Origin: Thermoprotei archaeon
GTDB taxonomy: Archaea > Thermoproteota > Thermoprotei_A > Sulfolobales > NBVN01
DNA length: 41,753 nt
Direction of reading: 5' to 3'
NCBI GenBank assembly: GCA_003661745.1
Contig: QMWS01000002.1
Span: 1 to 41,753 of the forward strand
The first letter of the stretch is position 1; the number at the start of each line of letters is the position of its first letter. This document shows positions 7,602-36,033 of the stretch, in pieces. The notes below the pieces were generated by a model. It had not been told where the DNA came from. It made no database searches and saw only the letters and a list, made by a program, of their open reading frames with translations. Made by a program: the position numbers and the translations under genes.

Positions 7602-7680
7602 GCTTCCCTCCGGAATCTCGTTTAGCTCAGCTTAGCACATCCTCGCCGCGAGAGAAATACCCTGCTCACTCCCGGAGGGC

Positions 7681-8052: not shown

Positions 8053-8056
8053 GCCC

Positions 8057-8152
8057 GAAATTCCCCCTTTATTTTTGAAGAGAGTGAATCTTATAAAGTT
8101 ATATATCGAACGCGCCTCAAAATTAAGGAGCGGATTGCTTGGCATTGTTTCC
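8057..8152 (-). promoter_or_regulatory. AT-rich promoter-like element, copy A, directly upstream of the replication operon
   Basis: About 95 bp and nearly identical to copy B. The core is shared with copy C at 38139. In minus orientation it reads ...GCGCGTTCGATATATAACTTTATAAGATTCACTCTCTTCAAAAATAAAGGGGGAATTTC. It contains TATATA and TATAAG -10-like hexamers and ends 5 nt before the RuvC ATG. Confidence 0.5.
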
Positions 8153-8165
8153 CCTCAGCCCGCCG

Positions 8166-8260
8166 GAAATTCCCCTTTATTTTTGAAGAAAGTGAATCTT
8201 ATAAAGTTATATATCGAACGCGCCTCTAATTTAAGGAGCGGATTGCTTGGCATTGTTTCC
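8166..8260 (-). promoter_or_regulatory. AT-rich promoter-like element, copy B (tandem with copy A, 109-bp offset)
   Basis: A direct repeat of copy A with only a few substitutions over about 95 bp, judged by eye. Confidence 0.5.
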
Positions 8261-8287
8261 TCGTAGCTCGCGCTCGCGCCGGAGGCG

Positions 8288-8327
8288 GAATCTGCACTCG
8301 GACGCCTCAATCTCCGAGTGCAGATTC
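8288..8327. terminator. perfect 15-bp-stem hairpin at the end of the late (structural/lysis) operon
   Basis: GAATCTGCACTCGGA-cgcctcaatc-TCCGAGTGCAGATTC. It lies 38 nt beyond the lysin stop and upstream of the tandem AT-rich elements. The T-run (TTCTTTG) follows on the plus strand only. Confidence 0.6.
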
Positions 8328-8364
8328 TTTGCTCCCCGGCCTAGTAGGTCAAGCCGGCGGCGGG

Positions 8365-10380
8365 TTACCATTCAGCGGCTACGATCGCATCCCACTCGCC
8401 TTCTCGGCAGTACAGCCAGCCCAGCGCGAATCCCTGCGCGGCATACACGACCTGGTTGATCGTCACACGGTGCTCCGTCGTCACCGGCACGCCGAGTTCG
8501 AGGGCCCTGGCCCGCTTCGGAAACGCCGCCTCAGGGTTGTACGGGACTCCGCCCGGATAGAGATGGTTCCAGAGGTAGTTGCGGATGTTCTCTACGACAT
8601 CGCCTACCAGGTCGTGCTCGGGTTCCACCACCAGTGCGAATTCCACGTCCACATGGTAGTGGTCTGTACCCACCAGCATGCCCAGGCCGTAGACGGCGTC
8701 AGATGGTGTAGAAGGGCTGATGACCCACGTCGCGTGCGGCCCTGGTTCACCAGGGTCGTGGTACGCGCCCGTCCCCATGCCCGGGCCGACCTCGCCGTTG
8801 CTATTGGTATACGCGACCAGGTAATTCGGCTCCCAATCGAATGCCGTCGGGCTCGGGTTCTCCTGCGGCGCGTCGGGCCAGTGCCATGCCACAGCCCGTC
8901 CCACGTCTGGTTCCCCGTTCGAAGTGACCCGGATGATCTCAGCAGCGTCCCCACGCTTTTCGCGTATCGCTACCAGCCTGAAGACCTCGTGGTCAGGGTC
9001 TGCCTCAGCCCTGCGGATCTCAATTCCGTATGTAGCTTGCAGCTCCTCGAGGGCCACTTCGTTTCCTTGCCAGTCATATGCTTTCACCTGCACTTGTGTC
9101 TCTCCTATCGGATCTGTGATTGGCAAATCTGCCCCGCGCACATACATCGCGAGCTCCCGTTCTATCCCGCTGCCGACGACGTCGAACCCCCGCTGCCGCC
9201 AGTCGTGCGCGGCGCCCGTCTCGAAAATCGCCGCGCAAAGCACCTGGGGATCTTGCTGCAATTGGCTGTCGTACCACTTCAGCCACTCCAGGTACCTGCG
9301 CTCGTCGCCGAACTTACGAAACCCTGCGTGCGGCCCGCCATCGGCCGCCGCCCTGTCCCAACCGACCTCAGTGATGAGGATCGGCGGCACTCGCGGGAAC
9401 CCCTTCAGAGTCTCTAGCGCACGCCTGTAGCGCAGCGTCCGCCAGCCGTCGTCGGGCAGGGACGGCCACCAATATTCGTGGAGCCCTAAATAATCCCCCT
9501 GGATTAGTGCATCCTTGTAATAATCCCAGTGCTCCAGACGTGGCCAGCCGACAGAGAAATTCCCGACCACGACCTTGAAGCCCGCCGCGTGGAATAGCTC
9601 GCATAGCCGCGCTTCGAAGTCGTTGAGACTTCGCATATCGCTTTCAGTCCACGGGATGAATTCGTTGACGCTCTCTACGATGTTGGTGATGTGCCGCCAT
9701 CGCTCGTACGCGCGGATCGTGTGCTCGAAGAAGTGCACCGCTCCAGCCTCGCCCTGACGCACCCAGTCGTCGCGGCTATCGTCAGTCCACTCGCGTCGCC
9801 AGACCAGCGGTCGCGGCCTCCCCGCGGCATCGTAGTGTGCCAGTAGGGCCTGGACGGCGCCGGGTGACACGTTACCCATGACCTTCATCGCCGGATATAG
9901 CGCCTGCTGGAGATGGGCCGTGGCTTGTGGATACGCCTCCTGCACGTGCGCGCCAAGCTTCGTTTGGATAGTCTGCATCAAGAACTCCTCCTCGGCCAGT
10001 TCGCGATATTTACGCAGGAACGGTTGCCAGTATATGCGGTCGAACGCGTCGTCACCAGCGCTCCGCCAACCGCCGCTGTAGTCCTTCACAGCCGACCGCA
10101 GGTCGTCGCGACGGTGGTCAAGGCACTGCCGTAGGATGCGCGCGCTCCAGTCGGCGTTGACCGCGGGATCCAGCAGCTCCTCGCTGTTCGGGCGGTCTGA
10201 GAACGCTCCGCCGTAATCGCTCGGAATGACCTGCCCAAGGCCGGTGGCCAGCGTGTGTGGGTTCACCGCCCGTGCATCCCACCGGCTCTCGATCCACCAA
10301 AGTGCCAGCAGCACCAACGGCCCGACCTGGTGCGTCCGCGCCGCCCCCTGCGCGATCGGCAGCAGTTGCTCTAGCGTCAT
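8365..10380 (-). CDS. two-catalytic-domain lysin: N-terminal lytic transglycosylase (SLT) plus clan GH-A-like TIM-barrel glycosidase plus unknown C-terminal region
   Basis: SLT signature LALWWIESRWDARAV ... TGLGQV. In the middle, ESVNEF and LITEVGW resemble the NE acid/base and E nucleophile strands of GH-A. It is the last gene of the structural operon. Confidence 0.8.
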   Translation of the reverse strand: MTLEQLLPIAQGAARTHQVGPLVLLALWWIESRWDARAVNPHTLATGLGQVIPSDYGGAFSDRPNSEELLDPAVNADWSARILRQCLDHRRDDLRSAVKDYSGGWRSAGDDAFDRIYWQPFLRKYRELAEEEFLMQTIQTKLGAHVQEAYPQATAHLQQALYPAMKVMGNVSPGAVQALLAHYDAAGRPRPLVWRREWTDDSRDDWVRQGEAGAVHFFEHTIRAYERWRHITNIVESVNEFIPWTESDMRSLNDFEARLCELFHAAGFKVVVGNFSVGWPRLEHWDYYKDALIQGDYLGLHEYWWPSLPDDGWRTLRYRRALETLKGFPRVPPILITEVGWDRAAADGGPHAGFRKFGDERRYLEWLKWYDSQLQQDPQVLCAAIFETGAAHDWRQRGFDVVGSGIERELAMYVRGADLPITDPIGETQVQVKAYDWQGNEVALEELQATYGIEIRRAEADPDHEVFRLVAIREKRGDAAEIIRVTSNGEPDVGRAVAWHWPDAPQENPSPTAFDWEPNYLVAYTNSNGEVGPGMGTGAYHDPGEPGPHATWVISPSTPSDAVYGLGMLVGTDHYHVDVEFALVVEPEHDLVGDVVENIRNYLWNHLYPGGVPYNPEAAFPKRARALELGVPVTTEHRVTINQVVYAAQGFALGWLYCREGEWDAIVAAEW

Positions 10381-10721
10381 TCGTCAGCCTCGTCGTCTTC
10401 TAGCTTAATCCCCAGCTGCTCGCAGAGATCAAGCACCTCGCGGCCGGACGCGGCGGGCCAGTCCTGCTTGGCCTCGACTCTCTGCTTGAGGAACGCGGCC
10501 AGATTGCGATCTTTGACCTCGATGTCCCATCTCTTGTTAGGATCGTTCCAGGTGAATCCTGTCGGAGTCGACCGCAGGCCGACCTCCTCCTGCTCGTCTT
10601 CGCTCATTTCGAGCAAGTCAATTAGCTTCAACGCCTTGTTGATCGTCCGCAGGTCGCCTTGGACAGAGTTCACAAGCATGAGCAGTTGCAACCGCTGCCA
10701 TGTCGTTAGATTGAGCTTCAT
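10377..10721 (-). CDS. hypothetical protein between fibre and lysin
   Basis: 114-aa ORF with RBS GGGAGG and an ATGA overlap with the lysin start. Acidic C-terminus. No transmembrane segment seen. Confidence 0.6.
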   Translation of the reverse strand: MKLNLTTWQRLQLLMLVNSVQGDLRTINKALKLIDLLEMSEDEQEEVGLRSTPTGFTWNDPNKRWDIEVKDRNLAAFLKQRVEAKQDWPAASGREVLDLCEQLGIKLEDDEADE

Positions 10722-10757
10722 CTCTACCTCCCTTGTGTGTATCGTTACAACAGCTGA

Positions 10758-13700
10758 TTAGCTGGCTGCTGCTAATCCGTGATGCTTTAGACATTCATTG
10801 ATTTGGCTGAGAAGTCGCCTTTCCTCATCACCATAAGTAGTATCAGGCTCTATGTCAAAGGCGCTATTTACATAGCGGCCATATACTACTCTGACACCAT
10901 TTACAAAATAAGCCCCTGAGCAATTGACATTACCGCTTACATCCAGCTGATGCTCGGGATCGAAATTACCGATACCAACCTTGCCGTTGAGAGTCATATA
11001 GATAGCGGTCTTGTCTATATCAGCTCCGGTTGCTACTATAATCCTACCCACATACGGTGCGCCGTGCGGAGCCTCTAGCCGGATGCTCCCTATTCCGTCT
11101 CTCTTTGCTCGTATCCTTGTCACAGCGTTTTTCCATACATCCAAATCCACGGCTGGAGAATATGTCCCAACACCGACATGTCCATCAGGATCGATGAATA
11201 AGGCGTCACTGCTTCCGTCATTTGTCAGCATGCGGATGTCATCTGCTTCTAAGGTCAGACGCCCATAGTTCAATCCCTTTTTGACCTTGATTGTCAGATA
11301 TCCCTCGCCTCCGGCGGGCCCACTGCTCTGAGCTATGTAGGCGACGGCATCGTCAAGAATATCCGAACCCCACTTGATCGCTCGGACATCATTGAACCCC
11401 CAGCCTGCTTGTAGCTTAATGCCCTTGGAATTCAGTTCGACTGCGCCTCCTCCTGCCATAGCCTTGCCAGTGGTGGCTTCGATGTAGAACTCTTTGGTGG
11501 TGGCGTCGCTGTAACCAGCAAGTTCACTGCTGCTTATTTCGATACGCGCTCCTCCAGGAATACCGACTGTAAGCTGACCATCGCAGGGATAGAATTCAAC
11601 ATCGTCAAAATACACAGTGGCCGCGTTGTCAGAGTCAATGTTCAAGGCAACTCTCGCGTAGCGTACTCCGTTGGGAGCAGTCGTTACTACCTCTTTTTTC
11701 TCCCAAGAGGTGCTGGCTGGAGAGACAATAGTCAGACTACCAATGACGGAACCAACGCGGTCATACCACTTTACACGGGCCCCCGCACCGCCCGTTCCAG
11801 TGCTATTCCTCACCCAAGCTGCTAAGTAGTAATTGCGACCCTCTTCTACGTAGATTGGTAAGGTATCTACTACTTCATAGCCGTTGACACCATCACCAGT
11901 AGCCTTTAGGCTATATCCGCCAGAGTGAGCTACTGTGTCATCAACCGTGGGAGTAAGTTCACGAATTCTCCACTCTGTTGTATCTCCTGTTTCGAATCCC
12001 GAGTTGGCTACAGCATTATGGCCACGCACGTTGATCTTGTTAGCAGTGATCGAGTGGGCATATATCTTGCCACCATCTATAAGGGTATAATCCTCGCTGT
12101 GTCGCCAATCGTCCGGTGACGTTGAACCTGAGATCAAGATGCGACCAGGTTCGATTAGAGTGGACGCTAAGTTGATCTTGTCTACAACCGTGTCAGCATC
12201 GACATTGCTCATGTCGGTTTTGGCTGCATCACCGCCGGTGACATATATCTGGCCCTGGACGATAAGAGCTGAACCGTTCCATTCGATCCGGTTGTCCCCG
12301 CTAGCATTGCCGAACCAGAAAGTTCCATCGGATGCGATATTGACCCGTTGAGTTGTGGCATCATATGCTTTGAGGCCATCATTGTCGATCTCGACTCGTG
12401 CACCGCCAGGAGAACCTACTAGTATTCGTCCATCTGCTAAATAGAACTCAGCGTCGTCGAAGTAGACGTTTGCGGTGTTCCCCGCCCGAATAGTCAGAAC
12501 AAACCATGCAGTTGTTGCTCCTGTGGGAGCTGTAACAACTGCTTCTTTTTTTGTCCAGGATGTTGAAGCACCGCTATAAGCTTGAGAGTAACTAATTACG
12601 GAGCCATCCTTGTCTCGCCATGTGATATAGCAACCCGCACTACCAGTTCCGGTGCTGTTGCGCACCCAAACACCGAAGTAGTACTTGCGTCCTTCTTCTA
12701 CTGCGAAACCTGTCTGTCTCGCTGGTATCACCTCAGAACCAGAGCTTCCCGTCGCTACTATCGAGTATTTACCGTTGTGAGGATTATACGTAGCGATACT
12801 ACCGGCTAGAGGATCCCAGGACGAGAGATCGCCGGTTTCGAATCCAGGATTTCCGAGCCAGTTTGCTCCATGAGCCAATAGAGCACTGGCTGTCACGGTG
12901 TTCGCATAGATATCTCCACCGTCAATCTTCGTAGTGTCGGTGGGATAAGCCCAGCCCGCCATGTCGTCCGCTGGCACGTCGTCGCTTCCGATGTAGACCA
13001 CGCCGTTGGCGTCAACTCTGAACCGTGGGTCGCTGGAGTTTGGCCCTAGCCAGAACAGAATGTCGCTACCTGACGCTGTTGGTAGCACCTCGCCTCGCAC
13101 GTTATCAGATGCGTCCACCCACTGCTGTTTGAGCCCGTGTATAATGGCGTTCTGGTCACTCAACAAGACATAATGGTCACTGTCCTTACCTGCCCAAAGA
13201 CCGTACTGCGCGCCGAGACCAGCCAGACCGTCTAGCTGCCCCAGACGCACGTGCGCCGTGTGGTTGGCGCCCGTGAATGGATCTGCTCCCTCCCAACTAA
13301 CCACGTCCAGGTACGGCGCGTAGTTGAGGTCAGCAGTGGCGAGCAAATAGCCCTGCCCGCTCTGGCCGTAGTCCGCCACCGCTACGCCCGCTTGGATCGT
13401 CACGCCTACGGAGCCGCTCTTGTGCGTGTACGTGTACCGCTGAGTGCCATCGCCCATGTCCGTCGGGTTGGTGACAACGCCCCACACGTCATACACGCCG
13501 TTGACGTACTCGCTCTTGATACGCACCCAATCGTTAGCGCTAAACAGGAAGCCGCCACCAGGTGGGTCGGTGATGTAGATGTAGGTGGTTCCATCGACCG
13601 CCGGCGTGGTGAAGTCCGCCGCCAGCTTGCCGCTGCTCTTGAAGATGCCCAACGTGCCTGCGTGCGCTTCTATCAGGTCTTTGACGAATACCGTGCAGTG

Positions 13701-15320
13701 CAGTTCGCCACGGATCCATGCGTTAGCGAATTCAACGTCGCCGTCGTGTGCAATCTGCCAGCCCTTGATCCCACTTTGGAAGTTAGCCGATTCGAGATCC
13801 CCCGCCTCGTTCACCTGGATCAGCGCGGTGCCGCCCTCGTCCTGCACCTCCCAGAGATTGGCAGTCTGGCTTCCGCTATTGCGCCGAACTGTGATGCCCT
13901 TGCGATCGTCGGCGCCAGTCCTCACGCCCAGGGCACCGTAGGTGCTTAGATCAGTACCAGCGTTGATACCGACCTTGTCGGCCGATGCGTCTACGAACAG
14001 CGTGTCCGTATCTACTGCAAGATCGTCATCCACCACGAGCGCGCCAGGCGTCCTCAGGATATTCGCTGCACTTCGATACAGCTGGGCATCTCCGCCGAGG
14101 AGGATGCCAGCGGCACTCCCCTGCGCAGGAAGTCTGAGCTGGCGGTTCGCGGTCAGCTCGAGGGCCGTGGCCCAGCTGCTGCCGTCATATGCCTCGATTG
14201 CGAAAGTCCGACCGGCGGCCGCGGCATTCGTGTAGTAGACAATGTTGACATTCCCACCATCGGTGGCGTGGTCGCCGCCGTAAAGCTCGATGTAGCCGCC
14301 GACCTGGTTGAAGCCGCCGAAGATCGAGATCGCCGACGCCGCGTCGCCGGACATGATTGTATCGACGGTCAAGTCCTGGTCTACTACGAGTGAATCCGGC
14401 GTCCTCAAGACGTTCGATGCGTCTCGATAGAGCTGAGTGTCTCCGCCGATGAACAGGCCATTGCTCGAACCCTGACCAGATATGCTGATAGTGCTGGTGG
14501 CTACCAGGTCTGGCAGGTTCAACGTCCCCGTCATTGTGTCGCCGGATTTTCTGACGAACAGATGCGAGAACGCCGCCGCGGCCACACGGAGTGCTACCCT
14601 GCTGTTGTAATCGCCCTCGCAGTAGAGTGTGACGGTAACATCGTTCCCAGAACCAGACACGTTCGCAAACAGCTTCAAGATCAGCCGATCGGACGTGTCG
14701 AGGTCAATGTCATTGGACACCGATGCGCTAAGAACCAGCTGGCTCAACGAGGATGAAAGTTCGTTGCTCTCCTCGCTGGTCATCAGTAAGGTCTCTGAGC
14801 CGAGCGCGTTGCGCTTATAAAGCTGCCAGTACAGCCTCGCGGTCTTGTTGCCTGATGCGAGCGCGAAGAACGTAGCGGTGTAGACGCCCAGGGACAAGAA
14901 CTCCAGTGACGGCTGCTCGCTCTCGGTGGCGAACGACCAGAGAAGTTGACCATCGCCGACCCCCAGCGGGCTGGAGACGAGGGTAGAAGCACTCTCGCCC
15001 GTCTCCTCGGGGAAGAGTGTGTAGTAGCCGCCGATATCGGAGCCGTTGTCTGATAAGAAGAAAGCCCAAGTAGATGCCGCGACCCCAATGTCAACATAGT
15101 TCTTCGTCGCGGCGTCCTGGTCTGCCTCGGGATCTTCCAAGTCTGTGATCTTGTGATCGCCCATTGAGAGATCGTCGGTCATCGGATCATTGCTGGCATC
15201 GAGCTTCAGATACGTACCGCTGAGATCCGGAATGTCCGATGTGGTGATGGTAGATATTATCTCAGTAGAGCTCTCCGTGATGGGCAGGTCGATCTCGCGT
15301 GGAGTTCTGCTCTTAGGCAT
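10758..15320 (-). CDS. tail fibre / receptor-binding protein with two carbohydrate-binding-module-like repeats
   Basis: 1520 aa, Gly/Ser/Thr-rich. It has repeated LYR(D/S)A.N.LRTP..LVVD.DL.VDT fibre motifs. Two GFETGD ... YFDD(A/V)EFY jelly-roll-like (CBM4/9-type) segments are present. It lies downstream of the tail genes. Confidence 0.85.
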   Translation of the reverse strand: MPKSRTPREIDLPITESSTEIISTITTSDIPDLSGTYLKLDASNDPMTDDLSMGDHKITDLEDPEADQDAATKNYVDIGVAASTWAFFLSDNGSDIGGYYTLFPEETGESASTLVSSPLGVGDGQLLWSFATESEQPSLEFLSLGVYTATFFALASGNKTARLYWQLYKRNALGSETLLMTSEESNELSSSLSQLVLSASVSNDIDLDTSDRLILKLFANVSGSGNDVTVTLYCEGDYNSRVALRVAAAAFSHLFVRKSGDTMTGTLNLPDLVATSTISISGQGSSNGLFIGGDTQLYRDASNVLRTPDSLVVDQDLTVDTIMSGDAASAISIFGGFNQVGGYIELYGGDHATDGGNVNIVYYTNAAAAGRTFAIEAYDGSSWATALELTANRQLRLPAQGSAAGILLGGDAQLYRSAANILRTPGALVVDDDLAVDTDTLFVDASADKVGINAGTDLSTYGALGVRTGADDRKGITVRRNSGSQTANLWEVQDEGGTALIQVNEAGDLESANFQSGIKGWQIAHDGDVEFANAWIRGELHCTVFVKDLIEAHAGTLGIFKSSGKLAADFTTPAVDGTTYIYITDPPGGGFLFSANDWVRIKSEYVNGVYDVWGVVTNPTDMGDGTQRYTYTHKSGSVGVTIQAGVAVADYGQSGQGYLLATADLNYAPYLDVVSWEGADPFTGANHTAHVRLGQLDGLAGLGAQYGLWAGKDSDHYVLLSDQNAIIHGLKQQWVDASDNVRGEVLPTASGSDILFWLGPNSSDPRFRVDANGVVYIGSDDVPADDMAGWAYPTDTTKIDGGDIYANTVTASALLAHGANWLGNPGFETGDLSSWDPLAGSIATYNPHNGKYSIVATGSSGSEVIPARQTGFAVEEGRKYYFGVWVRNSTGTGSAGCYITWRDKDGSVISYSQAYSGASTSWTKKEAVVTAPTGATTAWFVLTIRAGNTANVYFDDAEFYLADGRILVGSPGGARVEIDNDGLKAYDATTQRVNIASDGTFWFGNASGDNRIEWNGSALIVQGQIYVTGGDAAKTDMSNVDADTVVDKINLASTLIEPGRILISGSTSPDDWRHSEDYTLIDGGKIYAHSITANKINVRGHNAVANSGFETGDTTEWRIRELTPTVDDTVAHSGGYSLKATGDGVNGYEVVDTLPIYVEEGRNYYLAAWVRNSTGTGGAGARVKWYDRVGSVIGSLTIVSPASTSWEKKEVVTTAPNGVRYARVALNIDSDNAATVYFDDVEFYPCDGQLTVGIPGGARIEISSSELAGYSDATTKEFYIEATTGKAMAGGGAVELNSKGIKLQAGWGFNDVRAIKWGSDILDDAVAYIAQSSGPAGGEGYLTIKVKKGLNYGRLTLEADDIRMLTNDGSSDALFIDPDGHVGVGTYSPAVDLDVWKNAVTRIRAKRDGIGSIRLEAPHGAPYVGRIIVATGADIDKTAIYMTLNGKVGIGNFDPEHQLDVSGNVNCSGAYFVNGVRVVYGRYVNSAFDIEPDTTYGDEERRLLSQINECLKHHGLAAAS
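11495..12090 (-). repeat. internal duplication of the tail fibre, distal copy (approximate bounds)
   Basis: IDGGKIYAHSITAN...NSGFETGDTTEW...WVRNSTGTGGAG...YFDDVEFYPCDG...GGARIEI is parallel to the other copy. Confidence 0.7.
12340..12935 (-). repeat. internal duplication of the tail fibre, proximal copy (approximate bounds)
   Basis: IDGGDIYANTVTAS...NPGFETGDLSSW...WVRNSTGTGSAG...YFDDAEFYLADG...GGARVEI. The offset between copies is about 845 bp. Confidence 0.7.
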
Positions 15321-24591: not shown

Positions 24592-25545
24592 CTATGACCC
24601 CTCTTCAGTTAGCAGGACGCCGAACGGATAGCGCTCCGACTCGTCCTCTTCCATGCGATTGATCGGGTTGGGAACCTGCCATGCGATCCGCATGACCGCC
24701 CGCAACGCCACCATATCCTGTTGCGGCAGGTTGTAGACGATGTTCCCGTCCGCATCCTGGATCACTGCCTCAGTCAGCACCTTGTAACTGATGTCCTGCC
24801 TGAGCGCATAGATCATTTGCGACCAATCGCCGCAGATGAGCATCGCGTTCTGCCCGTTGAAGACGCCGTTACGCGGGAACTCGACCGGCTCACCGTCGAG
24901 TTCGTAGCGGTTCCTCTCCTGGACGTTCCTGGAGAAGATCAGCTGCCCGTCAGTCGCGCGCAGTCCCCGCAGGATCCCGCGCATCGAGACGTCCGCGATG
25001 TGACCGGTGATGAAGTACCCGTCCGCCTCGACCAGGCTCACGACTCCGTTCTCAGAGAGAAGGTCGTCGTAGATGTCCGGATTGGTTCCGTAGACTACGC
25101 TGTTACCAGCGGCTACAGCCGCCGTCACGACGTCAGTCGGCCAGGTCGCAGGTGCGTTCGTGCCGAACAGGACGGCCATGTCAAACACCCTGCCCATGGC
25201 CTCAACGATCCGCGGGCGGATCTCGCCCCACACGTCGTAGTCCTGGTCGTCGAGCACAGCCTCCGGAATCGGGACGATGCACGCGAGCTCCTCGGCGTTG
25301 AGATACTTGTTCTCCCACGCCTGCTCGGTGGTCTGCTTCAGGCCGATATCACCAGATACGAAGTACGCCGTTGGCAGCGCACTTAGCACTGGGATGCTCC
25401 GCTGCGCCCTCGGCATGTCCGGCGCGCGGGTGGCCAGGCGCATCACCGCACTCGACTCGGTGACGCCCTGTACGATCTCACGGCTGGTATCCGGTGGGAT
25501 GAGCGCAGCCGCATCACTCCTGCTTATAAGCGAATTGTACGCCAT
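24592..25545 (-). CDS. major capsid protein (HK97 fold family)
   Basis: 317 aa, placed after the scaffold gene. The N-terminus and overall pattern fit phage major capsid proteins. RBS GGAGAGG. Confidence 0.85.
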   Translation of the reverse strand: MAYNSLISRSDAAALIPPDTSREIVQGVTESSAVMRLATRAPDMPRAQRSIPVLSALPTAYFVSGDIGLKQTTEQAWENKYLNAEELACIVPIPEAVLDDQDYDVWGEIRPRIVEAMGRVFDMAVLFGTNAPATWPTDVVTAAVAAGNSVVYGTNPDIYDDLLSENGVVSLVEADGYFITGHIADVSMRGILRGLRATDGQLIFSRNVQERNRYELDGEPVEFPRNGVFNGQNAMLICGDWSQMIYALRQDISYKVLTEAVIQDADGNIVYNLPQQDMVALRAVMRIAWQVPNPINRMEEDESERYPFGVLLTEEGS

Positions 25546-28681: not shown

Positions 28682-28810
28682 CTAATTCTTACGCTCCACG
28701 TCTATCACGCCGAACTGCCAGAAGAGTCTGGCGAACGTCCAATTGCTGATGACCAGCACCTGGTTTATCGCCCAGGCGACCCACGGATTCATAATCACGC
28801 GCACAATCAC
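28682..28810 (-). CDS. possible 42-aa hydrophobic peptide between portal and MuF
   Basis: Hand translation gives VIVRVIMNPWVAWAINQVLVISNWTFARLFWQFGVIDVERKN. Its GTG overlaps the portal TGA, and its TAG lies 2 nt before the MuF ATG, which has no RBS of its own. Confidence 0.3.
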   Translation of the reverse strand: MIVRVIMNPWVAWAINQVLVISNWTFARLFWQFGVIDVERKN

Positions 28811-30141
28811 ACCCCCCTCTCGAATTGTGTCAGCAGCTTCTCCCCCAGCTCTGCGTCACCAGCCGTCCGCTCCTCCGCCATACGCTCGATCTCCTCAGGA
28901 CTGTAGCCAAGCTCCGCCAGTAGCTGCTCGCGGCTCACGCCCACCTGCTGCTTGAGCAGCGCCGTCTCAGCCTCCGCCCGCGGATTCCGCGGTGCAGCGT
29001 CTTCCCAGACTGTTGATAACCTGTAGTCTCCCTCGATCTCGCGCATCCGAAGCGCCAGGCTCATGCAGTCTTCCCAGACATCGCCGAACGTCTCCTGCAA
29101 ATTCGTGACGATCGTCGTGAGCCGCGCCTCCGCGGTCTTCATCGCCTCGCCCGAAGGCCAGCCGCCCGGGTCAAGCATGAGGTAGTGAAACGGGACTCCA
29201 GAGACACGCGCGATCTCCGCGCGGAAGGAATTCTGGACTTCCAGGAACTGCTTCAGATTCGCAGGGTCGAACTGACCGAACCGCACGTCGGGATCGCCGA
29301 CCGTCCAGATTCGCTCCACCCCAGGAGTGAATGGCGCCTTCGGCTTGCCCGTGACAGGATCAACCTCGACCTCAAGGCCGGTCGCCCACCGCTGCGGCAG
29401 TGAGACGTACTCCATTGCGACGAGCATATCCGCAACCGATTTGTTGAGTGCGTTCTGGAGCGGAATCACGTCCGCCAGCGCCGACCGCCCGAAGTTCGAC
29501 TCCCCCGTGCTGTCGTTCGCGAAGTGGAATACCGGAACCTGTCCCCAGGGATTCGGCACCACCGGCTCGTCCTCCAGCGGGACGTACCCCCGCGCGTCGC
29601 TAAGCGTGCCGTCCACCGCGCGCGACGTCACGTACTTCTCTATCCTATCTGGGTAGTAGAGATTTAGTCGAATCCGACCATCCTCAAGCCGCCACATCCG
29701 CGCCGCGCGCGTTATCTCGCCGTTCCCCTCGTCGCTGTACGCCACCGACATCCGGATAGCGCAGTTCGGATGAATCATCGGCAGTCCGTCCTGGCCGGGC
29801 CAAACAATCACGTACGCGTCACCATCCCTGAGCGCCATCCGATGCACGACACGTGACTTCCGCCCCATGCGGTTCTCTTGCCAAATGCCCCACGCCACGC
29901 CCGGCACCACGTCCTCCCCAGACTCCGCGCCGAAGCCGATTACAATCAGCCTGTCCGCCAGCGTGTCCACCACGACGCCGCAGAGGTTGTCTGCAAATGC
30001 ACTGAAGAACGATCCGAACGCGTTCCTGAAGCGCTCTGTCGCGAATGTAAGCTTGTGCTCGCCGTTGTAGTACTGCTGCGCAATCCTGTACCCCGGCTCG
30101 CGCGAGAGGATTGAATCTATCGCCCATTTGATGTCGCTCAT
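28807..30141 (-). CDS. portal protein (SPP1 gp6-like)
   Basis: 444 aa with an N-terminus typical of SPP1-type portals (YRIAQQYYNGEHKL...). It lies upstream of MuF. Confidence 0.9.
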   Translation of the reverse strand: MSDIKWAIDSILSREPGYRIAQQYYNGEHKLTFATERFRNAFGSFFSAFADNLCGVVVDTLADRLIVIGFGAESGEDVVPGVAWGIWQENRMGRKSRVVHRMALRDGDAYVIVWPGQDGLPMIHPNCAIRMSVAYSDEGNGEITRAARMWRLEDGRIRLNLYYPDRIEKYVTSRAVDGTLSDARGYVPLEDEPVVPNPWGQVPVFHFANDSTGESNFGRSALADVIPLQNALNKSVADMLVAMEYVSLPQRWATGLEVEVDPVTGKPKAPFTPGVERIWTVGDPDVRFGQFDPANLKQFLEVQNSFRAEIARVSGVPFHYLMLDPGGWPSGEAMKTAEARLTTIVTNLQETFGDVWEDCMSLALRMREIEGDYRLSTVWEDAAPRNPRAEAETALLKQQVGVSREQLLAELGYSPEEIERMAEERTAGDAELGEKLLTQFERGV

Positions 30142-30746
30142 CTTTGCCTCACTCTCTTCCGTATGTCAGGCCCGCGTCGGCTACCATGCGGCTCACGCGT
30201 GATCGGTGACCACGGCCTCCTGCGCCTCCGCGACGGCCGCACCTCCACGCGCTCCTGCTTGAGCTCCCCAGCCGTTGCGTATACCAGCCATGACTGCGGC
30301 AAGATACACGCCCGCGGCTTCACGATGTGGAAAGCCCTGAGGAACGCCAGCCGCTCGTCCTCGCCCTTCAGACATTCCGACCGCCACGTGACCAGGAACT
30401 CCCGCCCCGCATCGTCGTTGCGCACGAACAGCAGCTCGTACCCGTGGAGCAGCTGCCTCAAGTCAAGCACAACCGACCTGGTTAGCTTTCGCTCATCCAC
30501 CGTGCCCACGTCCGCTGCAAGAGTACCGTAGTTCCAGAGTGGAACTGCCATCTCCCAGGTGTCAAGAAACGAGAAGCCAGCGTCGAGCAGTCTGACAGGT
30601 ATCTTCATCCCGTGCGCAAGGAACAGCGTCTTGTCACCCGACAGCTCCCAATCGTCCGCGCCGCTCCGCACACGGATGCTGTACGGCGCTCCGAGTTGGT
30701 TCGCGATGCCACTGGCGTCGTCTATCGTCGCGATCACATTCGTCAT
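30138..30746 (-). CDS. hypothetical protein, last gene of the glycan cassette
   Basis: I set the start at the ATG at 30746 (MTNVIATIDD), which gives an ATGA overlap with the methyltransferase stop. Its own stop overlaps the portal ATG. Arg-rich C-terminal tail. No motif recognised. Confidence 0.6.
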   Translation of the reverse strand: MTNVIATIDDASGIANQLGAPYSIRVRSGADDWELSGDKTLFLAHGMKIPVRLLDAGFSFLDTWEMAVPLWNYGTLAADVGTVDERKLTRSVVLDLRQLLHGYELLFVRNDDAGREFLVTWRSECLKGEDERLAFLRAFHIVKPRACILPQSWLVYATAGELKQERVEVRPSRRRRRPWSPITREPHGSRRGPDIRKRVRQR

Positions 30747-31195
30747 TTGCGCACCCTCATCCGCGCCAGGAAGCTCGTCTCGGCGTTGTTCAGCCAGGGC
30801 CCCTTGACAATCTCCCACTTCCGCGGCGTATACCAGTGGTACGCGCGCCCCGCCTTCCGATCAGGGTCGAAATAGTCGAGCGCCCCCGGCGAGAGATGCC
30901 AGACATGCGTCGGATCCCTGTACGAGGTCTCGCTGTTCCACATGGGCAGCTTGATGAACAGCTCCGCGCCAGGCCGCAGGATGCGCCAGCACTCGTCCAG
31001 CGCCTCGACCAGCGTGATCCGGAGATGCTCGAACACCGAATGCGCGATGACCACGTCGAACGACTCGTCCGACCAGGGCCACGGTCGCTCGTTGAGGTCG
31101 TGCGTCACGTCGATCTCCTCGCGGTGCTTGACGAGATCGTGGTTCACCGCCCCACTGACGATCGAATTCCCTGCTCCAAGATTCAGGATCTTCAC
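30743..31195 (-). CDS. class I SAM-dependent methyltransferase
   Basis: Motif I KILNLGAGN and FDVVIAHSVFEHL of Methyltransf_11 type. I prefer the GTG at 31195 because GAGGAGGAGG precedes it and it gives a GTGA overlap; the ORF-track start is 31369. Confidence 0.75.
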   Translation of the reverse strand: MKILNLGAGNSIVSGAVNHDLVKHREEIDVTHDLNERPWPWSDESFDVVIAHSVFEHLRITLVEALDECWRILRPGAELFIKLPMWNSETSYRDPTHVWHLSPGALDYFDPDRKAGRAYHWYTPRKWEIVKGPWLNNAETSFLARMRVRK

Positions 31196-31965
31196 GCCTC
31201 CTCCTCTTCGAGCCATACTGCATATGGCGTCCGCTCTATCTCCGCCCGCACGGCGCCCCAGTTCTCGATGATCTCCGGCAGCGGCTGTGGGTTCACGCGG
31301 CGCAAATGGCAATGCAACATAGCCTGCGGCACGCCGAGGAAGTCGCAGATGCGGCTCGACACGTCCCACGGGATCCCCGTCGCCTCACCGTGCCCTGACC
31401 ACGCGATATCCTCGTATGTGAGCTCGAGCAGCTGAGAGAACTCCGCCAGTTTCGTCTTCGCGAACTCGTCCTGCTCACGCAGTTCTTCAATAGCCCTGAT
31501 GATAGACCGCGGCGCCAAGGACACCCGCTCGCGCATCGTGACCGCGCGGAATGTGTGTTGCGGCAGCGTAATGTGACCCGCGCGCGCCTTGCAGTTCAGC
31601 AGGAAGCTCACGGCCTGACGCAGGTAGTTTTCGCGCCGAAGATGAATCACAGCAGGCTGCGCCCTCACCAGGTACTCCCAGACGCCGTCTAGGAATGCCT
31701 GCCGGTATGTGAGTTTGCACATGCTCACATGATAACCAGTTTGGTCGAGCAGCGCCTGCAAGAGATCTACGCGGGTGATCCCGTCTAGGCAGTCGAGCCA
31801 CACGCTCCTGTAATGCAGCGGCTCGCCGCGGTCGCAGAAGATGTGCGGGTGATTACTCAGGCAATGTGCCAGGAACGTCCCCCCGCTTCGCAGCGACGCG
31901 ATGATTACCGCCGGTCGTGCGATGCCCCTGGTCATGTCGTTCTCGGTTATGCTCTCCGCTATCAT
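31192..31965 (-). CDS. Stf0-like sulfotransferase
   Basis: VIIASLRSGGTFL resembles a 5'-phosphosulfate-binding loop. HLRRENYLRQAVS resembles a 3'-phosphate-binding RR..Q.VS motif. I set the start at the ATG at 31965, which gives an ATGA overlap with the upstream stop. Confidence 0.7.
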   Translation of the reverse strand: MIAESITENDMTRGIARPAVIIASLRSGGTFLAHCLSNHPHIFCDRGEPLHYRSVWLDCLDGITRVDLLQALLDQTGYHVSMCKLTYRQAFLDGVWEYLVRAQPAVIHLRRENYLRQAVSFLLNCKARAGHITLPQHTFRAVTMRERVSLAPRSIIRAIEELREQDEFAKTKLAEFSQLLELTYEDIAWSGHGEATGIPWDVSSRICDFLGVPQAMLHCHLRRVNPQPLPEIIENWGAVRAEIERTPYAVWLEEEEA

Positions 31966-32789
31966 CTCCTCAGCTCCTCGTTGTACGCTCGAACCGCCTC
32001 GATGAGCCGCGCCGGCCGCCCCGTCCTCCTTGCCCACGCGCACAGGTTCGCCGTGTCCTTCGGCAAGCACTTGCCGCCGAAGCCGCGGTTCTCCGGATAC
32101 ACATAGGTGTGACTCCGCGACACCCGCGGGTCAGCCAGCCACAGCTCGCGCAGCTCGTGCCAGTCTACACCAGCCGCCGCGGCGAGATCATAGAATTGAT
32201 TGCAAAATGCGACCTTCGTCGCCAGCCAGGAGTTTTCCATCAACTTGCACAGCTCCGCCGTGCGCGCATCGGTCTGGTAGATGCGCAGCGACGAGTTGGT
32301 GACCAGCGTCCACGCCGTCGCGAATGCCCGCGTCACCTGCCGCGGCCCGCCCAGGATCACGAATGGCAGGCTGTTGCGGAGCGGGTGGTCAACCGTCTCG
32401 CCGTAGTACTCCGGCGAGAAGCAGGTGTTGCTCCCCAGCCACTCGGTCGTCCCGACCTCGACCGTGCTCTTAACGCACCAGTAGCGTACGCGATAATTCC
32501 AGCGCTCATACGCGTGGATGACTTCCGAGCAGTCGCAGCTCCCATCCTCCGCCTCGGGCGTCGGCACGCAGATGAACCCGAGCTCCCAATCCTTACGCTC
32601 ACCCTCAGGGAACGCCGCCAGGTCGTCCGCCACCCGCCGGACGACGCCGTCTACGTCCACGTAGTCCGCATCCGCGAAGAACCGCCCGATCTGCCGACCG
32701 ACATGGCCATAGCCGACGATGAGCGTCGGCGGGTGATGATTGACAACCTCTGGATGCGGCTTAGGCACCATGCTTTCGCTCCCACTCAC
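31962..32789 (-). CDS. nucleotide-sugar (UDP-glucose/GDP-mannose type) dehydrogenase, short form
   Basis: LIVGYGHVGRQIG is the Rossmann motif. GFGGKCLPKD is the catalytic Cys motif. The ORF ends about 30 aa after that motif. The start is either the GTG at 32789 or the ATG at 32771. Confidence 0.75.
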   Translation of the reverse strand: MSGSESMVPKPHPEVVNHHPPTLIVGYGHVGRQIGRFFADADYVDVDGVVRRVADDLAAFPEGERKDWELGFICVPTPEAEDGSCDCSEVIHAYERWNYRVRYWCVKSTVEVGTTEWLGSNTCFSPEYYGETVDHPLRNSLPFVILGGPRQVTRAFATAWTLVTNSSLRIYQTDARTAELCKLMENSWLATKVAFCNQFYDLAAAAGVDWHELRELWLADPRVSRSHTYVYPENRGFGGKCLPKDTANLCAWARRTGRPARLIEAVRAYNEELRR

Positions 32790-34443
32790 TCACCTTCCTC
32801 CACGCCCTTTCACTGTCGATCCGCCCCGGGATTGCGCCCGACCACCTGCGCGCCTGCTTCGGGAAATGCAGAATGCCCGCGGTCTCCACGCCCTCGGAGT
32901 ATGCCGGGAACGTGTTCCACTCGTTCCCCAGGACAAGCGTCCGCGGCGGGTCAGCATACAGCGCCATAAGCAGCGGCCCCTGGTCGCGCTGCGCAAACAC
33001 CTCCCACTCCTCGCGCCACCGCTTGAAGAACCGCTCCACACGCTCGCAGCGCCTGAACGCCCACACGCCACCATTCAGCTGAATCGTGTGAAGTGTCTTG
33101 ACAGCCCTACGCACCTTCCGCATCTCCGCGGCGTTATTTCGCCTGCGGTACGAGAACATCGTGTCCATGAGGTGCGGGTCTTTGCAGATGATGAATTCCC
33201 AACCGTCCTCGATCCACTCGAAGAACCGATACACCGGCGCGGTCACCAGGGTGTCGGCGTCGAGGTACAGCACCGATTCCCACTCCGCCGGACTCAGCTC
33301 GTATGCGCGAAGCTTAGCCCGCCTGCCGCCGATGTCACTGTCCTCCTGCTGGACGAAGACGTCCTCCAGCCCCAGCGGCTCCGCGCCGCATAGGCAAACG
33401 GGGATGTCCGGCATATGCTCCTTGATGCTCTCCAAGAGTCTGCTTGCGCACTTGCGCGCAGGGCCGCCGAACGCGACGACGTAAATCCCCCGCGTCGAGC
33501 CCGTGCCGTGATCTATCGGGTCAGCCATCTTGACCTTCACCTTCGCCTTCTTCCGCACCGTCTGGCGAACCCGCGGCGCGATAGCCTGGAACGCCTGGTC
33601 GTGCGCGGCGACGAAGTTCTCGACAGAGTGCTCCGCCGTCGCGTCACGGAGCGCATCTCTGTCAACACTCCTGCACGTGTCCATGGCCAGGAGCAGCGCC
33701 AGTATCATGCTCTTCGCGTCGCCGCGATTGAAGCGATGTATGCCATTGACGTCCGGCAGCTCATCGTGGAGCCCGACGCCCTTCGAGATCACCACGGGCA
33801 CGCCGCACGCCAGCGCCTCCAGGGTCGGCATCGGGATCCCCTCGACCCGCGACGGCACCAGCAGGATGTCCAAGCCGCGATAGAAGTCAGGCATCTCCGC
33901 CCACTTGTAGCGCCTCGTCGGCACCGGCCAGCCACGGCCGCTCGCTCGCCACTCCACGCGCCCGCCCAGCACCCCCGCCGCGAAGCGAACCAGATTCTCG
34001 CCCTTCCGCTGATTACGATACGTATACCCCGAGACGCCTATGACCACCGGCCCCGACCGCTTGCTCCTGGCGGGCGTGAATCGATCCCGCTCAACCGGCG
34101 CGGGCACCTGCACCGTCGGCCCGCGCGGAGACAGCAGGTCGGTGTAGATCCCAGCGGTGGTTATCCGCAGATCCACCCGCCGCCCCACCGAATCGAATAA
34201 CTTCGCCTTCGAGTTACCAGGGGGCTCCTCCTCGCGATGCGTGAAATACGCCGCCACAGGGACGTCGGGCCAGGGCTTCAGCCGCTGCGCCTCGAAATAC
34301 GCAAGCATGTACAGCGCGTCCGCGTCGTCCTCGATCACGCCATATCGCAGGCTCCATCCCAGGCGCTCCGCTAGATACCTCGCCATGCGCGGGATCACGC
34401 GGTCGTCCCGCCAGTTTCGGCACCAAATCTGCACGTTCACCAC
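32761..34443 (-). CDS. two-domain glycosyltransferase (GT-B/GT4-like N-terminal half plus GT-A/GT8-like C-terminal half)
   Basis: N-terminal half: LLVPSRVEGIPMPTLEALACGVPVV (EX7E). C-terminal half: VLYLDADTLV (DxD) and NGGVWAF. The GTG start overlaps the TerL stop. Confidence 0.8.
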   Translation of the reverse strand: MVNVQIWCRNWRDDRVIPRMARYLAERLGWSLRYGVIEDDADALYMLAYFEAQRLKPWPDVPVAAYFTHREEEPPGNSKAKLFDSVGRRVDLRITTAGIYTDLLSPRGPTVQVPAPVERDRFTPARSKRSGPVVIGVSGYTYRNQRKGENLVRFAAGVLGGRVEWRASGRGWPVPTRRYKWAEMPDFYRGLDILLVPSRVEGIPMPTLEALACGVPVVISKGVGLHDELPDVNGIHRFNRGDAKSMILALLLAMDTCRSVDRDALRDATAEHSVENFVAAHDQAFQAIAPRVRQTVRKKAKVKVKMADPIDHGTGSTRGIYVVAFGGPARKCASRLLESIKEHMPDIPVCLCGAEPLGLEDVFVQQEDSDIGGRRAKLRAYELSPAEWESVLYLDADTLVTAPVYRFFEWIEDGWEFIICKDPHLMDTMFSYRRRNNAAEMRKVRRAVKTLHTIQLNGGVWAFRRCERVERFFKRWREEWEVFAQRDQGPLLMALYADPPRTLVLGNEWNTFPAYSEGVETAGILHFPKQARRWSGAIPGRIDSERAWRKVSEWERKHGA

Positions 34444-35642
34444 GCTACGATCCTTCGGCTCCGTTGAGGCGTGCTGACCATCGCAAACGCCCCCGCGACC
34501 GCGTCCACCTGGTCGTCGTGCGTAGAGCCATCGCCTGTGAACGATACGAACTCGTCAATAAAATCTCTCACCCAATCTCCTCGCACCAGCGTCAGCTTGC
34601 CCTGCTCCGCCCGCGCAGCCACCGGTAACGCGCGCGTTAACTTGTCCTTGTCGACATCGATACCGCGGACGGAGATGCGCGCCAGCTCGCGACGCCGCAG
34701 CAGCGTCTGCACCGCCGCAATGCCGTGAAGCGACTTCTCGATGCCCTGCTCCACACCAGTGCCTTCAAGCAGCATAGTCTGCAACATAATCCGCTCCTGG
34801 TCTGGCCACTCCCACCGACCACGGATCACGTCGCGCACGTAGACAGTGCCATCGTCCGCCTGCGCCACGGCCGCGGATGCGGTGTAGTCCGCGCTCGTCT
34901 TTGTACTCGCCGCCAAGTCCCAGTACCGCGCCCAGCGCAGCCCACCCGGGGCCGCGTCCACAATGCGGAACCACTCGCGCCTGAACAGCGTCCCCGCCTG
35001 ATCGATGAACTCGCCCTCGAGCTCCTGCTTCGCGAAGAACTCAGTGTACTGACTCCTCACCGCTTCGTAGAATCCCTCTGGCAGGAACGGGTTCTCCAGC
35101 GTCCGGATCCGGAACAGCTCCGTACCTTCCCTGCCGCTGCCGAAGACCTCGTACGTCCAGTGCGCCCGCCCTTTAGGCGTGAACGTCGCAGACAGCCAGC
35201 CAGGCTTGCCACCACCGCCGCGGAGGGACGCGATGACGATCTCGAACGCGTCGCGCTTCATGAGACTCGCCTCGTCCAACCACGCGCCCGCCAGGTTCGG
35301 CCCGCGCGCGCGCTCCGGATCGTCCAACGATCGACAGATGATCTCCGCACCATTCCCAAGCTTGAGCATCATATCGCTCAGATTGATGCTGCGCAGGCAG
35401 TGCATCTGGTCGCAGATTGTGGTCAATGCCCTGAACGTCGCGTCTTTGAGCATTCCGTATGTCGGTGCGTACACACCGAAAAGCAGGCCGCGCGAGTCCG
35501 CAGACATCGCGCGTACCGCCATATCCAATGCTCCAACGTATGTCTTGCCGCTGCCGCGCCCGCCGACCAGCGCGCGGAAGGTCGCCTTTGAGTCCCTAAA
35601 CGCTTTCTGCTTCGGACTCAGCTTGATCCTCAGCTCCCGCAA
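34437..35642 (-). CDS. terL: terminase large subunit
   Basis: Walker A GGRGSGKT, Walker B AWLDEAS, and C-terminal nuclease-type acidic residues (YWDLAAS, THDDQVDA). There is no ATG start. I prefer the TTG at 35642, 6 nt after AGGAGG; the ORF-track TTG is at 35657. Confidence 0.9.
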   Translation of the reverse strand: MRELRIKLSPKQKAFRDSKATFRALVGGRGSGKTYVGALDMAVRAMSADSRGLLFGVYAPTYGMLKDATFRALTTICDQMHCLRSINLSDMMLKLGNGAEIICRSLDDPERARGPNLAGAWLDEASLMKRDAFEIVIASLRGGGGKPGWLSATFTPKGRAHWTYEVFGSGREGTELFRIRTLENPFLPEGFYEAVRSQYTEFFAKQELEGEFIDQAGTLFRREWFRIVDAAPGGLRWARYWDLAASTKTSADYTASAAVAQADDGTVYVRDVIRGRWEWPDQERIMLQTMLLEGTGVEQGIEKSLHGIAAVQTLLRRRELARISVRGIDVDKDKLTRALPVAARAEQGKLTLVRGDWVRDFIDEFVSFTGDGSTHDDQVDAVAGAFAMVSTPQRSRRIVAW

Positions 35643-36033
35643 CCACGACCTCCTCAACCAGCTTCAGCTTCACCTCGCCGTCGTGCATGTGCCGAACCCG
35701 CTGGCCGTACACCTCGGGACGGCGTGATGTGAGAATAAACGTCAATAATTTATCGCTACTTTCTTGAGCACGCTTCCAGGCAATAGCCTCGAGACCATCC
35801 AGCGCCTCTTCCAGCGCCTCGTCCCACGCCGCCTCGAACGTCTTCCAGCGCCGTCGCGCACAGTACGCACCGCCTCGCGTAATACCAGCGGCCTGACAGG
35901 CGGCGCGCACGTTCGCGGTGTTCCGCAGCGCCGCGATAAACCTGGCCATCCACGGCCGCGGCAAGTCGCGCCTCCGGCCGATCAGCGGCCCCAGCTCCCC
36001 TGTACCGCCTTTTCTGCTCTCCCTCTTGCTCAT
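35596..36033 (-). CDS. terS: terminase small subunit (HTH type)
   Basis: 145 aa directly upstream of terL. It has an HTH-like segment NVRAACQAAGITRGGAYCARR. Confidence 0.7.
   Translation of the reverse strand: MSKRESRKGGTGELGPLIGRRRDLPRPWMARFIAALRNTANVRAACQAAGITRGGAYCARRRWKTFEAAWDEALEEALDGLEAIAWKRAQESSDKLLTFILTSRRPEVYGQRVRHMHDGEVKLKLVEEVVVAGAEDQAESEAESV

Follow-up and report, generated by a model that had tools for sequence, protein, structure and literature searches.

A five-gene cassette in the head-gene block of a metagenomic phage: a predicted module for glycosylation, methylation, and sulfation of the capsid

The DNA analyzed here (the window; 41,753 nucleotides, contig QMWS01000002.1) is nearly the whole of a metagenomic phage contig (ENA ERZ1742239 NODE_900), with nearly all of its genes on the minus strand, and a 5.7-kb fragment identical to its sequence is held in SRR6823441. 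Between the genes for the large terminase (TerL) and an SPP1-type portal lies a cassette of five genes, which encode a two-domain glycosyltransferase (GT), a truncated protein of the UDP-glucose/GDP-mannose dehydrogenase family (DH), a 3′-phosphoadenosine-5′-phosphosulfate (PAPS)-type sulfotransferase (ST), a small class I S-adenosylmethionine (SAM)-dependent methyltransferase (MT), and a 202-amino-acid protein of a large uncharacterized family (UNK). We consider it probable that these genes form a phage-encoded module for O-glycosylation of the virion, specifically of the capsid, in which the glycan also receives methyl and sulfate groups. The predicted acceptor is a Gly-Ser dipeptide at the C terminus of the capsid protein.

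The major capsid protein of the window ends ...RYPFGVLLTEEGS (...TEEGS), with the terminal Gly-Ser codons at positions 24595 to 24600, and none of its 11 relatives from phages lacking the cassette ends in Gly-Ser (these end ...VLTA, ...VLAP, ...VLTT, or ...PPAAGAAD). A large clade of cassette-bearing phages encodes capsid proteins that have no BLAST-level similarity to that of the window, though both fall in phrog_10; there, Gly-Ser was the ending in 48 of 60, typically as ...(E/T/A)(S/A)GS, and Gly-Thr in 2 more, compared with 0 of 23 outgroup capsid proteins (41 to 49% identity, no glycosyltransferase genes nearby), which end ...DLTA, ...TLP, or ...VTAV. The capsid protein of locus L001 (phrog_1005) ends ...NVLESGS, compared with ...KDLVQ and ...KDLVK in two relatives. 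Thus, Gly-Ser capsid ends were found in three lineages with the cassette and in 0 of 36 cassette-less relatives. In the cassette-bearing phages, the dipeptide terminates a short C-terminal extension of the capsid protein.

Gly-Ser was also the ending of the major tail protein (phrog_1407) in 12 of 14 cases within the large clade, against a background of 15 of 877 (1.7%) for other open reading frames of the same loci. The head-closure protein did so in 10 of 21, which is weak evidence, as its final TCG TGA shares nucleotides with a GTG start. At the capsid terminus, Gly was encoded by all four of its codons and Ser by AGC, AGT, TCC, TCG, and TCA, with variable spacers. Because synonymous codons vary at both positions, selection acts on Gly-Ser at the protein level. 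The possibility that the capsid ends are a by-product of Shine-Dalgarno sequences or start codon overlaps was considered and rejected on the same grounds, namely use of all Gly codons and of both Ser codon families and varying spacers; for the head-closure protein, this possibility was retained.

A study by Freeman and coworkers is said to have established virion glycosylation in bacteriophages, reportedly in the mycobacteriophages Che8, Corndog, and Myrna, with few signs of it among phages at large. According to papers citing that work, mycobacteriophage glycosyltransferases modify the capsid as well as the tail tube (PMC10877033, citing Freeman et al. 2023), and the glycans are located at the C termini of the subunits of both structures (PMC12619734, citing the same study). 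The essential transferases are given as Che8 gp110 and Corndog gp38 (PMC12363180), and cluster O phages are described as carrying an O-methyltransferase gene followed by three glycosyltransferase genes (PMC11600133). The Che8 and Corndog genomes were retrieved after the Gly-Ser hypothesis had been formed. In Che8, the capsid protein gp6 ends ...NKTGS and the tail protein gp11 ends ...YSDGS; in Corndog, gp41 (410 amino acids, unannotated and presumed to be the capsid protein) ends ...PLVGS and the presumed tail-tube protein gp49 ends ...IKGDS. The control phages L5 and Bxb1 showed no Gly-Ser ending. Four capsid proteins (L001, Che8, Corndog, and L128) were inspected only once the hypothesis was in place, and 3 of them end in Gly-Ser, versus a background of approximately 2%.

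The resemblance to the mycobacteriophage systems extends beyond the capsid end, as these phages also encode soluble glycosyltransferases, and Corndog has an O-methyltransferase as well. In Corndog, as in the window, the modification genes lie in the head block (gp35 to gp38, with the presumed portal gp34 on one side and the protease gp39 on the other), whereas those of Che8 are at the far end of the genome, so that linkage to virion genes is no strict marker of the family. The enzymes themselves differ. The window encodes a GT4 and GT8-like fusion where Che8 and Corndog encode three shorter, separate glycosyltransferases; its methyltransferase belongs to a different family; and it adds the sulfotransferase, the truncated dehydrogenase, and the 202-amino-acid protein. 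The tail-tube proteins of the window also lack the ending seen in Che8 gp11, and, unlike for the mycobacteriophages, no evidence was found for an actinobacterial host. The window cassette is therefore best read as a probable analog of the mycobacteriophage system rather than a set of the same gene families.

The five minus-strand open reading frames occupy positions 30138 to 34443 (Table 1), where a first-pass annotation made from the sequence had placed them, and an independent gene call on ERZ1742239 NODE_900 gave identical products of 560, 269, 257, 150, and 202 amino acids. Each has many homologs, and we therefore regard all five as real genes. The first-pass annotation had described every junction as a GTGA or ATGA overlap. 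All six junctions from TerL to the portal do overlap, and four are of this kind, with 4-nucleotide overlaps (ATGA at DH/ST, MT/UNK, and UNK/portal; GTGA at ST/MT), but GT and DH overlap by 11 nucleotides (ATG at 32771, TAA at 32761), and the TerL/GT junction reads GTGGTGA, an overlap of 4 or 7 nucleotides depending on which GTG is taken as the start. No promoter-like or terminator-like sites above background were detected inside the block, and its GC content is that of the flanks. The premise that TerL and portal genes are usually adjacent holds for the lineage of the window: in its nearest portal relatives (L016, L017, and L019; 54 to 55% identity), the stop of a full-length TerL homolog lies no more than about 10 nucleotides from the portal start or overlaps it. 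Compared with this lineage, the window thus carries the 4.3-kb block as an insertion.

Table 1. Genes of the cassette, its boundaries, and other features of the window discussed in the text
Feature	Coordinates	Strand	Basis and remarks
Large terminase TerL	34437-35657	-	Pfam Terminase_6N and Terminase_6C; upstream boundary, stop overlaps GT start
GT, two-domain glycosyltransferase, 560 aa	32761-34443	-	Pfam GT4 half and DxD GT-A half
DH, truncated UDP-glucose/GDP-mannose-dehydrogenase-family protein, 269 aa	31962-32771	-	Pfam UDPG_MGDP_dh central domain
ST, PAPS-type sulfotransferase, 257 aa	31192-31965	-	Conserved motifs and predicted AlphaFold2 (AF2) fold
MT, small class I SAM-dependent methyltransferase, 150 aa	30743-31195	-	Pfam Methyltransf_11
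UNK, large uncharacterized family, 202 aa	30138-30746	-	Conserved cassette partner
SPP1-type portal	28807-30141	-	Pfam SPP1_portal (110 bits), phrog_104; downstream boundary, ATG overlaps UNK stop (ATGA)
Major capsid protein, HK97 type, 317 aa	24592-25545	-	PF05065, phrog_10; C terminus ...RYPFGVLLTEEGS
Tandem paralogous genes, 240 aa and 132 aa	21244-22372	-	Both match major-tail-protein PHROGs
N6/N4 DNA methylase, 485 aa	36030-37487	-	Domain at residues 198-471
MuF-family head protein, 633 aa	26778-28679	-	MuF domain at residues 166-267 only
Tail protein, 1520 aa	10758-15320	-	CBM_4_9 module
Oxidoreductase-like protein, 451 aa	2769-4124	-	FAD/NAD(P)-binding Rossmann N terminus (DAO 33 bits, Pyr_redox_2 30 bits)

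The module recurs in about 60 retrieved IMG/VR loci and in 3 contigs from metagenome-assembled genomes (MAGs), where it comes immediately after an HK97-type capsid gene and before a head-tail adaptor gene. The gene order in the IMG/VR loci is TerL, portal/MuF, protease, capsid, GT, an optional pair of GT2 genes, DH, ST, and MT (each optional), and UNK, followed by the genes for head-tail adaptor, head closure, neck, tail terminator, and major tail protein; the terminases and portals of these loci do not match those of the window. The three MAG contigs have the same layout, and one of them (L118) carries all five gene types. In L001, GT and DH come after the connector genes of a further, different head module; in L128, the cassette is again part of the head block, three genes beyond that for the capsid protein; and in both L128 and L115, ST homologs are found in clusters of glycosyltransferase and methyltransferase genes beside head genes. 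According to a genome scan, the module-bearing MAG contigs are phage sized and have been assigned to bins of unrelated phyla (Pseudomonadota, Dehalococcoidia, and Sideroxydans). The varied gene neighborhoods identify the cassette as a mobile module, which was part of the head or late block wherever it was seen. Its core is GT, which UNK accompanies in most loci, whereas the set of decorating genes differs among loci. The TerL-portal interval is one insertion site, so far unique to the window, and the emphasis that the first-pass annotation put on it was misplaced, since most relatives carry the module after the capsid gene and a site in the head block was already known from Corndog. Two further features of these loci were observed. 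An apparent intein interrupts a portal/MuF fusion gene in L013 (positions 5 to 2131; LAGLIDADG-like motifs LLGDGNV and LDSDGSV, end ...VVHNS), and L001 (positions 8 to 3778) contains a polyprotein-like reading frame of 1,256 amino acids that joins a methyltransferase-like segment (residues ~267 to 364, resembling MT of the cassette) to a ligase-like segment and, at the C terminus, to a head maturation protease domain.

The N-terminal half of GT, matched over residues ~160 to 295, exceeds the Pfam cut-offs for Glyco_trans_1_4 (43.5 bits; cut-off, 27) and Glycos_transf_1 (39.9 bits; cut-off, 26.4) and contains an E-x7-E motif (EGIPMPTLE); on its sequence, it is assigned to the retaining GT4 family of GT-B fold. 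The C-terminal half (residues ~310 to 560) is a predicted GT-A domain with a DxD motif (LDADT) that is invariant in homologs. Its score against the GT8 profile (Glyco_transf_8; 18.7 bits, E = 1.4e-3) is below the cut-off of 24.3, although the profile matched in 8 of 10 homologs; Nucleotid_trans matched this half in 5 of 10. The two halves are encoded as separate genes in L014, L015, L041, and L056. Homologs of GT form at least 564 clusters, all metagenomic, many of them on contigs of about 40 kb. Among GenBank phages, blastn with 6.9 kb returned no DNA match and tblastn with GT no protein match.

ST contains a 5′-phosphosulfate loop (RSGGT; R26, G28, and T30) and a 3′-phosphate motif (R111...S120), both invariant in 30 homologs. 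Its Pfam scores are below the cut-offs (E ~4e-3; Stf0, 17.2 versus 22; Sulfotransfer_3, 18 versus 27), so that membership in either family is not established, and its sequence profile weakly matches the OLS/CurM sulfotransferase, Stf0, and tyrosylprotein sulfotransferase (TPST). An AF2 model of high confidence (pLDDT 94.6) was compared with the Protein Data Bank (PDB) using Foldseek; the top 31 matches were all of sulfotransferase fold (E down to 5e-6, TM ~0.5) and include 3rnl, heparan sulfate 3-O-sulfotransferases, TPST, the CurM sulfotransferase, and NDST. From its motifs and confidently modeled fold, ST is predicted to be a PAPS-dependent sulfotransferase. It has in common with Stf0, NodH, and the polyketide synthase sulfotransferase CurM the fold and the 5′-phosphosulfate- and 3′-phosphate-binding motifs for PAPS; unlike them, it is a member of a distinct family associated with phages, which comprises at least 157 clusters from metagenomes and whose MAG labels are mixed. 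Literature searches found no characterized phage sulfation system, in line with the remark in the first-pass annotation that it was aware of no such cassette in the literature; a citing paper, however, credits Iyer et al. 2013 with a computational prediction of glycosyltransferase- and sulfotransferase-based nucleotide modification systems in phages. A separate observation is the far more elaborate version of the decoration module on L115, a larger, phage-like Logan contig of 84 kb. In its cluster of about 14 kb (positions 1 to 14300), two paralogous ST genes are accompanied by several methyltransferase genes, two nucleotidyltransferase genes, glycosyltransferase genes of the GT2 and GT4 types, and genes for a phosphonate-binding protein, an ABC permease, and a protein of metallo-beta-lactamase fold.

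DH carries the GxGxxG Rossmann motif, the central domain (UDPG_MGDP_dh, 82.5 bits), and the catalytic Cys motif (GFGGKCLPKD), with an N-domain score of 26.6 bits against a cut-off of 27. The C-terminal nucleotide-sugar-binding domain is missing: the TIGR03026 match covers positions 74 to 295 of 413, and the alignment with PDB entries for UDP-glucose dehydrogenase spans residues ~80 to 310 of 450 to 478, with DH ending at the equivalent of residue 310. By these features, it is classed as a truncated relative rather than a canonical three-domain member of the family. Since the short form is conserved in L001, L002, and L118 at 72 to 77% identity, DH is regarded as a functional variant and not a pseudogene. 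Formation of a uronic acid from a free nucleotide sugar is doubtful because the domain that would bind this substrate is lacking.

MT exceeds the cut-off for Methyltransf_11 (36.6 versus 21.2 bits), has at its N terminus the sequence ILNLGAGN, in keeping with a glycine-rich motif I, and falls in phrog_6636 (methyltransferase); its gene adjoins GT and UNK in most related loci. UNK consists of a core (~residues 30 to 155) and an arginine-rich C-terminal tail and matched nothing in Pfam, PHROG, NCBIfam, or PDB sequences. Its family comprises 503 representatives at 50% identity, and in most complete cassettes it lies downstream of GT. Alignment of the core (residues 81 to 159) with the distal GT-A half in hhalign gave a probability of 42% (E = 2.7e-4, 79 columns) when a deep alignment was used, compared with an insignificant 2% in an earlier run with a shallower one. 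The position equivalent to the GT-A DxD has no acidic residues, and UNK may be a DxD-less relative of this half. The AF2 model of UNK is poor (pLDDT 58), and its Foldseek matches are meaningless. Fusions in the family are rare and involve Methyltransf_24 (P0299) or C-terminal helix-hairpin-helix (HhH) motifs. In the long homologs P0260, P0264, P0271, P0282, and P0349, one or two copies of a motif, PLVRVEI-PGR-V-K, precede the HhH domain; this motif is also present in the UNK tails of L005 and L013 and could serve DNA or RNA binding or assembly. Overall, the gene identities proposed in the first-pass annotation stood for the GT4 half, the sulfotransferase, and the methyltransferase; the GT8-like half remained below threshold, and the dehydrogenase proved to lack its C-terminal domain.

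We propose the following mechanism. The cassette would be expressed together with the head genes late in infection, because the junctions overlap and no internal promoter or terminator signal was seen. The soluble GT4/GT-A enzyme would then build a short O-linked glycan on the Gly-Ser tail of the capsid protein in the cytoplasm; such cytoplasmic protein modification fits the cassette, since none of its five proteins has a hydrophobic segment (maximum KD19, 1.43). MT and the PAPS-dependent ST would subsequently decorate the capsid glycan, and the truncated DH may oxidize a sugar. UNK would serve as an auxiliary subunit and is possibly a GT-A-like domain that has degenerated catalytically and aids substrate recognition. 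The phage could benefit, for example, through shielding of the particle surface or a change in its charge. The first-pass annotation had named virion proteins, the host envelope, and DNA as possible targets without choosing among them; the evidence favors virion proteins and points specifically to the capsid C terminus.

Several observations weigh against this mechanism. In the window, the codons GAA GAG GGG that precede the stop may also provide a ribosome-binding site for the gene that follows, and only the capsid protein ends in Gly-Ser, the two tail-tube-like proteins ending ...FGRR and ...GTVS. In the large clade, 10 of the 60 cassette-bearing capsid proteins end ...LS, ...LA, or ...AT, and the capsid protein of L128 ends ...TVAT. 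The association of Gly-Ser with the cassette is partly structured by clade, and within the large clade it may reflect only one or a few evolutionary events. BLASTP of the window enzymes against Che8 gp108 to gp110 and Corndog gp35 to gp38 gave no match at E < 0.01, and probabilities did not exceed 0.1% when the GT-A half and the UNK family were each compared with Che8 gp110 in hhalign. Finally, the enzymes themselves leave room for other acceptors: GT4 and GT8 are also the families of the classic soluble lipopolysaccharide (LPS)-core transferases, which would make host envelope modification possible; the modeled ST fold resembles protein-tyrosine as well as carbohydrate sulfotransferases; and HhH DNA-binding motifs occur in some UNK homologs.

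The enzymes might instead act from the cytoplasmic side on a glycan of the host envelope (LPS core, capsule, or a precursor of a wall polysaccharide) and so alter the phage receptor, which would exclude superinfecting phages or spare progeny from loss on cell debris. The LPS-core enzymes of families GT4 and GT8 (WaaG and WaaI/J-type) have in common with GT the CAZy-type folds, the E-x7-E and DxD motifs, a soluble or peripheral location, and the use of nucleotide sugars. NCBIfam profiles for an LPS 1,6-galactosyltransferase and for exopolysaccharide (EPS) GT4 enzymes weakly matched GT, all scores being far below the cut-offs; some database sources name ST homologs "LPS sulfotransferase NodH"; and the carbohydrate-binding module of the 1,520-amino-acid tail protein suggests that the receptor may be a glycan. 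GT differs from the LPS-core enzymes, however, in that the similarity is at the level of domains only, the two domains are fused, and the gene lies in a phage head operon with no LPS genes nearby. In all contexts seen, the module was in the late head-gene block, away from lysogeny or early genes, and on the window contig no integrase or lysogeny module was seen. The cassette contains no flippase, polyprenyl-phosphate transferase, or membrane segment; the Gtr/O-antigen cassettes of seroconverting prophages, which resemble it in being phage genes that alter a glycan, depend on integral membrane proteins, namely a flippase, a bactoprenol glycosyltransferase, and a periplasmic glycosyltransferase. 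An envelope target would also give no reason to expect the Gly-Ser tails of the capsid proteins or their counterparts in Che8 and Corndog, and we consider it unlikely.

ST, and perhaps MT, could alternatively act on protein side chains such as tyrosine, or the whole set could produce a small glycoconjugate, both sulfated and methylated, unrelated to the virion. The fold alone cannot decide between a glycan and a protein side chain as the acceptor: tyrosylprotein sulfotransferases appear among the structural matches of the ST model at ranks 6, 8, 9, and 12 to 15, but carbohydrate sulfotransferases are among the best matches, with equal or better scores. The Stf0 family acts on a free disaccharide, and ST and DH are optional in the module, both of which favor such a role. 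The ST homologs whose context was examined, however, always adjoin glycosyltransferase genes, and we regard this explanation as distinctly improbable.

Hypermodification of phage DNA, in which a modified base would be glycosylated and methylated or sulfated to evade restriction, with the position of the cassette beside the terminase gene reflecting modification at about the time of packaging, is the least likely alternative: the diversity of DNA-glycosylating phage enzymes (Pyle 2024, as cited in PMC12619734), the prediction attributed to Iyer et al. 2013, a DNA methylase gene two genes upstream of the cassette, the HhH motifs of some UNK homologs, and the Arg-rich tail of UNK in the window would suit it, but Pfam and PHROG scans of the 41.8-kb contig, on which many reading frames had no matches, detected no hydroxymethylase, thymidylate-synthase-like, TET/JBP, or base-kinase gene, more than 60 relatives carry the module between capsid and adaptor genes and not by replication or nucleotide metabolism genes, and the protein-level Gly-Ser signature would be left unexplained. 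T4-type DNA glycosylation by the alpha- and beta-glucosyltransferases resembles the cassette in that the enzymes are phage encoded and dispensable for host metabolism; unlike those genes, the cassette is situated in the head block rather than among nucleotide metabolism genes, with no genes for base hydroxymethylation or related functions found on the contig.

Other genes of the window merit description (Table 1). The N6/N4 DNA methylase gene lies directly upstream of a putative small terminase gene; the N-terminal ~195 amino acids of its product have no Pfam match, and a homolog occupies the same position in L112. In the MuF-family head protein, the C-terminal ~300 amino acids, which Pfam does not match, show by eye a pattern of R / S-T-S / E-x-E (FSTSVTG...LPEGEVVL), reminiscent of the ADP-ribosyltransferase toxin domains to which MuF proteins can be fused. 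The 451-amino-acid oxidoreductase-like gene has an unusual location in the replication and recombination module, between a Sak4-like AAA_24 gene and DUF669. GC content falls to ~0.51 to 0.52 at 11 to 13 kb and at 39 to 40 kb, compared with ~0.62 elsewhere in the window; the former stretch is inside the gene for the 1,520-amino-acid tail protein and may reflect exchange of a receptor-binding region.

Virion glycosylation as such is already known. What is new is the set of enzymes, one of which represents a phage sulfotransferase family, how broadly the module is spread in uncultivated phages, its modular mobility, and the terminal Gly-Ser signature common to cassette phages and the experimentally glycosylated mycobacteriophages. 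Beyond capsid modification in the window phage, we put forward a wider proposal only tentatively: a large group of environmental tailed phages, so far unrecognized, may tag the capsid, and often the tail tube, with a C-terminal Gly-Ser that their own enzymes O-glycosylate, with sulfation in a subset that includes the window phage and with a tag that arose convergently with that of the mycobacteriophages. If so, the window would encode the first sulfated glycoprotein virion among bacteriophages, and virion glycosylation would be predictable from sequence alone. Should the reading proposed above for the window cassette be right, the Gly-Ser capsid terminus would serve as a simple sequence predictor and a candidate acceptor site. 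A system analogous to that of the mycobacteriophages but built from different enzymes would be widespread in uncultivated phages, with hundreds of clusters of glycosyltransferases, sulfotransferases, and partner proteins, and would pass between phage lineages as a module. Its decoration would be variable (methylation, sulfation, extra GT2 enzymes, and the truncated dehydrogenase), much as in O-antigen gene clusters. A sulfated capsid surface would alter the charge and interactions of the particle and could be used for engineering of phage surfaces.

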